Shown here: one piece after another, positions 54,310 to 57,066 of the stretch
Layout: the number at the start of each line of letters is the position of its first letter
Numbering within the stretch: position 1 is the first letter of the stretch
From: an uncultured Chloroflexota bacterium
GTDB lineage: Bacteria; Chloroflexota; Limnocylindria; Limnocylindrales; CSP1-4
NCBI GenBank assembly: GCA_903822495.1
Contig: CAIJPD010000059.1
Span: 7,130 to 71,129, forward strand
Length of the DNA: 64,000 bases
Direction: 5' to 3'
Made by a program: the position numbers and the translations under genes
The notes under the pieces: generated by a model
The model's input: only the letters and a program-made list of their open reading frames with translations
Told to the model about the DNA's origin: nothing
Database searches by the model: none

Positions 54310-55131
54310 GTGCCTGACCCAGTCCGCGTGCTGCGAACCCCAGTCGTGGCCGCCCTCCTGATCGCGCTCGTCGTGGTGCTGGGCGTCACGCCCGGCGTGA
54401 CCATCGCGCCGTCCCCGGTTGGCGATGTGCTGGGCGAGGTGAGCGGGCCGTTCGCCGACCAGGGCGGCACCGGCGATGTGATCGCCCCGGCTGCTCCCGC
54501 CGCCACCGCGGCCCACACCATCGACCCGCACCTCCTGGCGATCGAGCAGGACGAGCCGGCCAACGGCATCGTCCGCGCGCCGCACCAGCTGCGCGGCTAC
54601 GCCTGGCCCCTCTCCCAGGTCCGGATCACCCAGCCCTTTGGGCCCGCCAGGGGCGCCTCGGCGATCCTGGATGGGAAGGCGTTTCACGACGGAATCGACC
54701 TTGCGACGTTCTGCAGTGACCGTGTCCTGGCCGCGCACGACGGCGTGGTGCTGGCCGCGGGCCGCCGGTATGACGACTTCCTGGGCTGGAAGGGTGACCT
54801 GACGGCCTACTTCGATCGCCTGGACACGCTGGGCCTGTGGGGCACGCTGCCGATCGTGGTCGTCATCGACGACGGCAACGGCTACCGGAGCGTCTACGCC
54901 CACATGTACAAGCTCTCGGTCAAGGTGGGCGACATCCTCAAGGCCGGCGCCATGATCGGCTACGAGGGCGCCACCGGCCATGCGACCGGCTGCCACCTCC
55001 ACTACGGCCTCTTCAACCCCGACGCGACGGGCGTGATGGGGATCGACCCCGCCGTTTGGCAGAAGATGCTCCTGCCGGATTCGGAGGTCGCCCGGATCGA
55101 CCCGCAGCTGGTCTTCCCGAAGCTGCCGTAG
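54310..55131 (+). CDS. M23-family metallopeptidase, membrane-anchored
   Basis: HDGIDLA, YAHM, TGCHLHYG. Confidence 0.9.
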   Translation: MPDPVRVLRTPVVAALLIALVVVLGVTPGVTIAPSPVGDVLGEVSGPFADQGGTGDVIAPAAPAATAAHTIDPHLLAIEQDEPANGIVRAPHQLRGYAWPLSQVRITQPFGPARGASAILDGKAFHDGIDLATFCSDRVLAAHDGVVLAAGRRYDDFLGWKGDLTAYFDRLDTLGLWGTLPIVVVIDDGNGYRSVYAHMYKLSVKVGDILKAGAMIGYEGATGHATGCHLHYGLFNPDATGVMGIDPAVWQKMLLPDSEVARIDPQLVFPKLP

Positions 55132-55305
55132 CCACGGGGACCGTCCGGACGACGCGATCAGGTCGCGGGCGAGACTCGTGGTCGAGATTCGTGGGCACCC
55201 GAGCGTGGGCACTCGAGCGTGGTCGCGAACATGCGCGGGACGCACGAGCAGGGCACCGGCGCCGCGAGCCGAGTCGGGTGGCCGCGTCGGGTGGCCGATC
55301 CGACC

Positions 55306-55497
55306 GCCGATGTTCCCAGGGAGTACAACCTGACGTTGATTCCCGCGCCGGCAGGGGCAACCGGCCGGAATCCCCCGATCCTGTTCCCGGTCGATACCGA
55401 ATCCACGGAAACAGGGGGTCAACGGGGCGAATCTCGACCCCGAAGGCCGGTCGGTGGCGCGATTCTCGTCGGGTTGTATCCGGGGGGAACATTCGGC
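55306..55497. ncRNA. Candidate structured RNA of about 190 nt (6S-RNA-sized); MITE is the alternative
   Basis: 5' and 3' ends pair over about 60 nt in several helices, enclosing two internal hairpins; strand unresolved. Confidence 0.45.
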
Positions 55498-55499
55498 AT

Positions 55500-55556
55500 G
55501 ACGCCCCGTTCGGCGTCCCGACTGGCGCCGCGTTTGGCGTCCTGACTGACGCCCCG
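55500..55556. repeat. Imperfect tandem of 24-bp hairpin units (2.4 copies)
   Basis: GACGCCCCGTTCGGCGTCCCGACT / GGCGCCGCGTTTGGCGTCCTGACT (20/24 identical), each with a 6-bp stem. Confidence 0.7.
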
Positions 55557-55644
55557 CCGTGCGCGTCTTGCGGCGCGCGTCTTGCGGGCGGGTCCCGGGT
55601 GGGCATGAGCGTGGGCGTCGAGCGGCCCCGGCGTCGAGCGGCCG

Positions 55645-57066
55645 CTACTCCCGGACGCGCCGGTAGCGCCGCCCGATCAGCGCGAACGCGGGGAGCCGCC
55701 CCAGCGACGCGCTGAGCCGCAGGTCCGTGGTCCCGTCCCGGGCCTCCAGCGCCAGCAGCGCATTCATCGCGGCATCGTCCGGGGGGCGCGCGTCCACGAC
55801 CGCCAGGTCGATGGCCACGCGGCCCGGCTCCGCCTCGCCGAGGGTCGCGACGGCCGCCGCGGGCCACTCGCCCTCCTCGAACTCCACGCGGACCTCCCGC
55901 TCGGCGTGCCAGCGCGGCTGGCGGAGCAGGATCCCGCGCCAGGCGTCCGCCACCGCTGGCGTCACCAGCCCGCTCCCGGGTGCCGGCTCCCCGCCACCGC
56001 CCCACAGCCGCTCGCCGCGCGCCCAGAGCGCGGCCTGGTGGAGGAGCGAGTACTCGTCGAGGTCCGCGTAGTCCGACAGCCGCTCCGCCGGGGATCCCTC
56101 CCCGAAGACCGCCCGCACGGAGGGCCCAAACACCTCGGCCAGGTCCAGGTCGATCGCCCGGACCGTCCGGTGGAAGTAGACCTGCTGGTACATGAACAGG
56201 CGCGTGGCCAGGAACATGGCCAGCGCGCCGATGGCCGGCTCGTAGAGCGTCAGGCCGCGCTCGGAGATGAACGCGTAGCGCCGGAGCCGCTCCACGTCGA
56301 TGGGCCCCGCGGCGACCCCGATGAAGTAGGCGTCGCGTCGGACGTAGTCGAGGTTGTCCACCGTGAAGACGCCCGACAGGAGCGGTTGCAGCCAGCGCAC
56401 CCAGCGCGGCATCGCCGGGTCGTCGAGGGCCGGCTTTGAGACCAGGTACGAGACCCAGCGGGGGTCGATGGCCTCGCCGTCGGCCAGGGCGTCCCGCTCG
56501 GGCACGGCGCCCGGCGCCCGGCGCAGCCCGCGAATGAGGGTCCCCAGCTCCCGCTCGATGATCAGCTGGCTCAGGTCCTCGTGGCTGAGGGTCTTGCCGG
56601 CGGACCGCCGCGCGTCGGTCGGCGCCGGGAAGTCCGCCAGGACGTGGTCGTCGAAGAAGTGCGCGAACGGCCCATGGCCCACGTCGTGGAGGAGGCCGGC
56701 GACCCGGAGCGTCTCCACGACCAGCCCCTCGGACGGGCCGGGCTCGGTCGGGGCCGCGGCAGCCAGGGTCGTGCGGAGGCTTGGGTAGAGGGCGCGCGCC
56801 CAGAGCCCGGCCTCGTGCATGACGCCCAGGCCGTGGGTGAAGCGCGAGTGCTCCGCGGTGGGGAAGACCCAGCGCGCACTCTGGAGCTGGCTGATCCGGC
56901 GCAGCCGCTGGAGCCAGGCGGTGTCGAGCAGATCCTCCTCGGCGACGTCCTCGCTGGGCAGGCCGGCCGCCCCGGCCTCATCCGCGGTCAGCCGCTTGGT
57001 CAGCTCGACGTACCCGTGGATGGGGTCGCTGATCAGGTTGACCGCGGAGAACTGGTGGCGGGCCAC
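55645..57066 (-). CDS. HD-superfamily phosphohydrolase, dNTP triphosphohydrolase (SAMHD1/YwfO)-like
   Basis: DPIHGY, QRLRRISQL, EHSRFTHGLGV, LLHDVGHGPFAH, VDNLDYVRRD, R-FMYQQVYFH. Confidence 0.9.
   Translation of the reverse strand: MARHQFSAVNLISDPIHGYVELTKRLTADEAGAAGLPSEDVAEEDLLDTAWLQRLRRISQLQSARWVFPTAEHSRFTHGLGVMHEAGLWARALYPSLRTTLAAAAPTEPGPSEGLVVETLRVAGLLHDVGHGPFAHFFDDHVLADFPAPTDARRSAGKTLSHEDLSQLIIERELGTLIRGLRRAPGAVPERDALADGEAIDPRWVSYLVSKPALDDPAMPRWVRWLQPLLSGVFTVDNLDYVRRDAYFIGVAAGPIDVERLRRYAFISERGLTLYEPAIGALAMFLATRLFMYQQVYFHRTVRAIDLDLAEVFGPSVRAVFGEGSPAERLSDYADLDEYSLLHQAALWARGERLWGGGGEPAPGSGLVTPAVADAWRGILLRQPRWHAEREVRVEFEEGEWPAAAVATLGEAEPGRVAIDLAVVDARPPDDAAMNALLALEARDGTTDLRLSASLGRLPAFALIGRRYRRVRE

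Follow-up and report, generated by a model that had tools for sequence, protein, structure and literature searches.

A genus-restricted family of 187-bp palindromic intergenic repeats, probably relics of a miniature mobile element, in an uncultured freshwater Chloroflexota bacterium

The locus and its predicted fold

The window (the whole stretch of DNA that was analysed, 64 000 nucleotides of contig CAIJPD010000059.1, positions 7130 to 71 129, GenBank assembly GCA_903822495.1, from an uncultured Chloroflexota bacterium of the order Limnocylindrales) contains two convergent genes, for an M23 peptidase and an HD-domain phosphohydrolase, with a spacer of 513 nt between them (55132–55644). The HD gene is the last in an operon of a WYL regulator, an alpha-beta hydrolase and the HD protein, and this gene order is kept in relatives. 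An earlier note on this DNA had placed a highly structured, unannotated element in the spacer, at 55306–55497, following that operon on the minus strand. It had weighed 6S RNA, a new class of ncRNA and, as a fallback, a MITE. The element is real and its placement correct: an imperfect palindrome of 187 nt (copy A; table 1) lies 150 nt beyond the stop codon of the HD gene. Its bounds, set by comparison with the other copies, lie slightly inside those first proposed. A covariance model of the six copies found in this study (R1) gave a full-length match at G000:C59:62437–62623, which is the same interval in contig coordinates (G000 being the genome to which the window belongs).

Folds of copy A were predicted for both strands, as MFE and centroid structures, and compared with shuffled sequences. 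The terminal arms ATGTTCCC..GGA.GTACAACCTGACG pair with CGTCGGGTTGTA.TCC..GGGAACAT in the MFE and centroid folds of both strands; the helices CGCGCC/GGCGCG and CCGGCC, and the inner hairpins CCTGTTCC/GGAAACAGG and CGGGGCGA/TCGACCCCG, were recovered in both kinds of fold, so that every helix listed earlier was found in the sequence and in the predictions. The plus strand gave −101.9 kcal/mol (z −2.68, 2/200 shuffles as good) and the minus strand −103 kcal/mol (z −3.13, 0/200 shuffles as good), to be read against shuffles that themselves average −88 kcal/mol, high-GC DNA generally folding well. The predicted structures have a closing stem of approximately 45 bp and a multibranch interior with two to three hairpins.

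At the DNA level the ends form imperfect TIRs of approximately 35–45 bp, with perfect matches over the outermost 10 bp (GGATGTTCCC/GGGAACATCC) and over an ACAACC/GGTTGT block further in. Pairing in the terminal helices reaches 95% over the six copies, and GAATC/GATTC boxes are conserved in their alignment. The search against Rfam proposed in the earlier note matched no family at the gathering score in the whole window, and at E ≤ 10 gave only noise in the region 55100–55700.

Table 1. Features of the spacer, its flanking genes and the copies of the repeat; positions without a contig are those of the window.
Feature	Position	Strand	Description
M23 peptidase gene	54310..55131	+	Pfam PF01551, E 3.6e-20; convergent neighbour
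Short tandem repeats, other side of copy A	55170..55298		13- and 14-nt units
Copy A of the 187-bp palindromic repeat	55308..55494	- (reference orientation)	GAATGTTCCCCCCGGATACAACC...GGGAACATCG; from folds, own-genome copies and six-copy alignment
Family 3' arm, positions 150-187	55308..55345	-	GGGAATCAACGTCAGGTTGTACTCCCTGGGAACATCG; pairs with 5' arm, interrupted by conserved internal loops
Variable middle	55353..55449		two or three local hairpins; paralogs 42-73% identical
Family 5' arm, positions 1-34	55461..55494	-	GGATGTTCCCCCCGGATACAACCCGACGAGAATC; nearly invariant across six copies (alignment A2)
24-nt tandem repeat	55499..55556		2.4 copies; copy number differs in sister species
Short tandem repeats	55561..55643		14-nt unit x2; GGCGTCGAGCGGCC x2 here, at least 6 in sister species
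HD-domain phosphohydrolase gene	55645..57066	-	Pfam PF01966 and PF19276
Copy B	G000 C5:223-409		divergent region upstream of a secreted protein gene without Pfam match
Copy C0	G000 C48:8674-8881		208 nt; between a GGDEF-HD gene and ssb
Copy C1	G001 only		between a membrane-protein gene and polA

Copies and distribution

A BLAST search with the element against its own genome (G000; a 90%-complete MAG of 3.6 Mb in 68 contigs, 71.6% G+C) returned three copies, two of them besides copy A. The only other species of the genus (G001) carries three as well. For copies A and B the two species have orthologs, with flanks that align at approximately 94% apart from copy-number changes in tandem repeats; the third copy sits at a different locus in each species (C0 in G000, C1 in G001), and each of these loci is without the element in the other. 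All four loci are intergenic and mutually unrelated. The earlier note had asked for the genome-wide copy number and had taken many dispersed copies as a sign of a MITE, and dispersion is what was found, with three copies per genome. Two further assemblies (L060, L061), reached with the HD protein as handle, have copies that match the ones in G000 and G001 exactly.

In the orientation GGATGTTCCCCCCGGATACAACC...GGGAACATCC the six copies measure 187, 187, 187, 187, 188 and 208 nt, a length of 187–188 nt being held in three of the four lineages despite 30–55% divergence of the middle. Searched with R1, 101 genomes of the family yielded only these six copies (145–210 bits; 2/101 genomes), and a 23-mer of the 5′ arm, with three or fewer mismatches allowed, was present in 2/401 genomes of the order. 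Collections of plasmids and phages contained no true relative; a single match to a viral contig was rejected as chance. A two-part pattern had no match among metagenome contigs, and four such contigs that matched a 20-mer were likewise set aside as chance, the match lying inside a low-GC membrane-protein gene.

Taken together, the neighbours of the copies are genes for the M23 peptidase, the HD phosphohydrolase, a GGDEF-HD protein, SSB, polA, and membrane and secreted proteins, and no copy brackets a gene. Genes of DNA metabolism adjoin three of the four loci: the HD phosphohydrolase (window 55645–57066), ssb (L003, G000:C48, 1961–2500) and polA (L034, G001:C1, approximately 1860 onward). With four loci this adjacency may be chance. 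The gene downstream of copy B (L002, approximately 650–1908, G000:C5; also L033) codes for a secreted protein that has a signal peptide and matches no Pfam family; its ...DCVWASAAMLLDKW... motif might be that of a cysteine peptidase.

Sequence conservation and covariation

Among paralogs the ends (approximately 45 nt each) are 80–89% identical and the middle 42–73%; between orthologs the corresponding values are 94–97% and 91–92%. Such a pattern of conserved ends around a variable middle is typical of TIR elements. The G+C content of the copies is 60–67%, against 71.6% for the genome. Over its 34 nt the 5′ arm has single lineage-specific changes only in A, B and C0, and three changes in C1; the 3′ arm is less conserved and differs between lineages.

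Covariation, for which the earlier note had called, was sought in the alignment of the six copies and did not exceed that of shuffled alignments (score reached by 145/500 shuffles), which points towards a MITE. By pair count 94% of cells over the six copies are paired, with no measure above shuffles, and in consensus folding the covariation terms were unfavourable on both strands. One stem position, U.G on the plus strand of the window (C.A on the other), has changed independently to C-G in copy A of G001 and to U-A in copy B of G001. In the terminal stem, read on the plus strand of the window, opposite to the reference orientation, G.U cells number 12 and C.A cells 4; this post hoc count corresponds to approximately 8 versus 4 independent events and is not significant. 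The changes at the U.G position and the excess of G.U, neither of them significant, lean towards structural constraint. A near-invariant 5′ arm opposite a varying 3′ arm, together with the held length, could reflect a function at the level of the host.

Flanks and tandem repeats

The left and right flanks of each copy were compared for direct repeats. C0 is flanked by an imperfect direct repeat of approximately 18 nt (p ~0.02); at A, B and C1 no significant repeat was detected (p 0.30, 0.30 and 0.85, respectively). For copy A the left-versus-right score was 7, in agreement with the earlier remark that no direct target duplication is visible there. B, C0 and C1 have right flanks that are alike over approximately 15–20 nt (p ~0.002), so the repeat unit may reach slightly past the hairpin. 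The flank motif CCGGACGGGTCGCCGC was tried as a genome-wide target and rejected, being no more frequent than shuffled motifs. The left flanks of A, B and C showed no conservation, and no conserved promoter or terminator was found at the copies.

Apart from the element, the spacer 55132–55644 consists largely of short tandem repeats with units of 13, 14, 14, 16 and 24 nt in two to three copies each. One of these, GGCCGCTCGACGCCGG, is present in two copies in the spacer of the window and in at least six in G001. TRF run on G000 gave 1044 merged short tandem-repeat loci, 290 of them with a period not divisible by three.

Filled and empty sites

The C0 locus of G001 is a clean empty site. G000 reads ...CCGGACGGGTCGCCGCTCC (208-nt element) CTGG CCGGAACGGGGCCGCACC... 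and G001 reads ...CCGGACGGGTCGCCGCACC..., the repeat at the empty site being a hybrid of the two that flank C0 in G000, left and right. These two differ from each other far beyond the 5–6% divergence of the species. A hybrid repeat and two strongly diverged flanking repeats are better explained if G001 underwent a deletion between the direct repeats than if G000 recently gained an insertion, which suggests, from comparison of the two sequences, that recombination between short direct repeats removed the C0 copy from G001.

The C1 locus maps to G000 C52:40097–40460, where approximately 560 nt including the element are absent. The membrane-protein gene upstream of C1 has a low-complexity C-terminal tail that is almost unalignable between the species (L034 880–1225 versus G000:C52:40097–40420), and the remainder of the gene is approximately 93% identical. 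At the locus of copy A, the nearest other lineages (HD protein 83–84% identical) keep the HD/M23 pair with a spacer of approximately 85 nt and no element.

The restriction to one genus and the empty sites indicate that the family originated in the ancestor of the genus or was acquired by it, settled at four or more sites and is now losing its copies one at a time. No near-identical pair exists among the paralogs, and hence there is no sign of recent copying or transposition; all copies look old.

Comparison with known repeat families

Most of what characterizes a MITE is present. The ends are TIRs (a 10-bp perfect outer repeat with inner matching blocks), the element is small and non-coding (187–208 bp), copies are dispersed over four loci in two species with three per genome, and filled and empty sites were found at C0 (empty in G001), C1 (empty in G000) and A (empty in sister lineages). 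Two further features are missing. The copies have no target-site duplication of fixed length, and no parent IS or transposase gene with the ends of the element was found in G000, in 401 genomes of the order or in plasmids or phages, a search whose reach is limited by MAG incompleteness. Incomplete MAG assemblies often lose IS copies. Candidate parent-IS pairs with GGATGTTCCC ends were rejected as chance matches with no extended similarity. Families of MITEs with 1–22 copies per genome have been described, and three copies per genome fall at the low end of that range (PMC10969869).

Among known kinds of repeat, ERIC/IRU and Correia-type elements come closest; they are alike in anatomy and genomic behaviour and share no sequence with the family, two of the features of a MITE being absent as stated. 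Like the present family, ERIC/IRU sequences are non-coding imperfect palindromes of approximately 100–200 bp, intergenic and often transcribed, can have a low and lineage-variable copy number, have no known transposase and vary in presence or absence between related genomes (PMC10969869). The element differs from ERIC in that it has no sequence similarity to it, is 187 bp rather than 127 bp long, has three copies per genome and is confined to one genus of Chloroflexota. Correia elements, too, have TIRs around a variable core, are intergenic and are expected to give a long RNA hairpin if co-transcribed. They duplicate a TA target, number in the hundreds and include IHF or promoter modules. The element, by contrast, has no regular duplication, three copies and no promoter-like site that could be found.

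REP and REPIN sequences are also palindromic, intergenic and hairpin-forming. REPs are units of 20–40 bp, headed by GTAG or CGTC and numbering from tens to hundreds (PMC3733652, PMC3116915), whereas the element is one palindrome of 187 bp in three copies, and the high-copy short units of a REP/REPIN-RAYT system were not found. Long inverted repeats in G000 showed no excess over a mirror-repeat control, and the element forms a small family on its own, outside any REP-like swarm. The strongest long inverted repeat of the genome (G000:C40:20254–20853, 600 nt, arms of approximately 166 nt) is unrelated to it. No description of such elements in this lineage was found in the literature, the one match related to Chloroflexi concerning GTAG/CGTC REPs (PMC3733652).

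Interpretation

On balance, copy A is probably a member of a small, genus-specific family of palindromic intergenic repeats that are relics of a MITE-like or ERIC-like element. Three copies per genome and a range of one genus make an old, now immobile miniature mobile element the most likely identity, in place of 6S RNA or a new class of RNA. The fallback named in the earlier note thus stands as far as TIRs, dispersion and filled and empty sites are concerned, and lacks its regular target duplication and parent IS.

If the family is of this origin, it would have been spread in the ancestor of the genus by a transposase that worked on the conserved ends in trans; the enzyme would since have been lost, or lies unassembled, and the family would be immobile today. 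By analogy with known repeats, an element read through within a neighbouring transcript would form an RNA hairpin of approximately −90 kcal/mol. In ERIC, a hairpin in the mRNA can alter transcript stability, and the Correia hairpin of Neisseria is a substrate of RNase III (PMC10969869); processing by RNases is described for hairpins of both kinds in transcripts, and a hairpin of the present family could, in the same manner, stop read-through or become the substrate of a double-strand RNase (PMC10969869). The transcript concerned would be, for copy A, the 3′ end of the HD or M23 mRNA and, for C0 and C1, the leaders of ssb and polA.

Alternative explanations

That there are only three copies, no general target duplication and no parent IS leaves some room for a new ncRNA family. 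Such a family would be genus-specific, paralogous and structured, its terminal panhandle stem serving as a protein-binding or stabilizing platform and its variable interior giving specificity to the paralogs. The fold is stable on both strands, the ends are more conserved than the middle with a near-invariant 5′ arm and a kept length, and the paralogs keep the internal loops of the stem; the excess of G.U over C.A and the two single-sided changes that restore Watson-Crick pairing at one position lean the same way. Against this reading, covariation does not exceed shuffles, the 12 to 4 count shrinks to a non-significant difference once independent events are counted, no conserved promoter or terminator accompanies the copies, and A, B and C have unrelated upstream flanks. 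At C0 and C1, moreover, the strand with the better pairing runs antisense to either neighbouring gene, a different copy has been lost in each species, and all other genera are without the element. Of the new ncRNA class once proposed, the stable fold and the conserved arms survive, and the missing covariation, the dispersed copies and the missing promoter speak against it; we consider it unlikely.

Several particular kinds of RNA or coding element were examined and rejected. A Y RNA (Rsr/Ro) was discarded as PF05731 (TROVE) is absent from the genome and from 12 relatives, while control genomes match; a retron msr-msd, an IS110 bridge RNA and a TnpB/IscB omega RNA were discarded as no gene for a reverse transcriptase, recombinase or nuclease is adjacent. 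The R′/R″ core motifs of an integron attC site do not fit, and the copies are dispersed rather than arrayed. As to a small protein, a 1-nt indel in C1 disrupts the only ATG frame that the copies share, and conservation ends after approximately 11 codons.

A DNA-level cis element of the host, that is, a protein-binding or cruciform-forming site near genes of DNA metabolism and perhaps a co-opted mobile repeat, would account for the invariant 5′ arm, for the conserved GAATC/GATTC boxes and for an orientation that does not fit co-transcription at every locus, and it would give meaning to the neighbouring HD phosphohydrolase, ssb and polA genes. The gene association comes from four loci and may be fortuitous, copy A lies downstream and not upstream of the HD gene, copy B adjoins a secreted protein with no assigned function, and the same genes in relatives are without the element, all of which makes this reading improbable. 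About equally improbable is a reading that joins elements of the two preceding ones, in which the copies are young, genus-specific panhandle RNAs or ssDNA hairpins of approximately 187 nt, with the 34-nt 5′ arm and the conserved internal loops as a platform for a host protein and an interior that differs between paralogs.

The 6S reading, in which the element would be 6S RNA or an RNA-polymerase-binding regulator of the 6S kind, was suggested by shape: 6S RNA (RF00013) is approximately 185 nt long with a long interrupted closing stem, and the 187 nt and the closing stem of the element agree with that. The interior is predicted to be multibranch and not a central bubble with an apical stem. RF00013 gave no match even at E ≤ 10 in the region 55100–55700, and none at E ≤ 1 in G000 and 12 relatives, the same search matching in 5/14 control genomes. 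This leaves the 6S RNA of the lineage itself unrecognized in 13 genomes of the order, a circumstance that favours the reading to some degree. Three copies per genome were found, when a housekeeping 6S RNA usually has one or two; the two species differ in the locus of one copy; and the element is missing from 99/101 genomes of the family, from 399/401 of the order and from the syntenic spacer of the nearest relatives. Being multicopy and absent from other genera and syntenic sites, the element is unlike a housekeeping 6S RNA, and this identity is essentially excluded. A chance palindrome or an assembly artefact, which the ready folding of high-GC DNA might have suggested, has a negligible probability with six copies in two independently assembled genomes and identical ones in L060 and L061.

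Significance

The significance of the family as found is small. The analysis removes a false 6S or new-RNA lead. A 6S RNA of this lineage, if present, escapes the 6S model of Rfam in all 13 genomes of the order that were searched. If the copies were, after all, panhandle RNAs or ssDNA hairpins, their siting by ssb, polA and the HD operon could indicate that they take part in DNA metabolism or in the response to damage. As a relic mobile repeat, the family adds an undescribed, low-copy palindromic repeat to an uncultured genus of freshwater (lake) Chloroflexota. It also offers a clean example of a long palindrome lost by deletion between short flanking direct repeats, in a setting of intergenic spacers unusually rich in fast-changing short tandem repeats.
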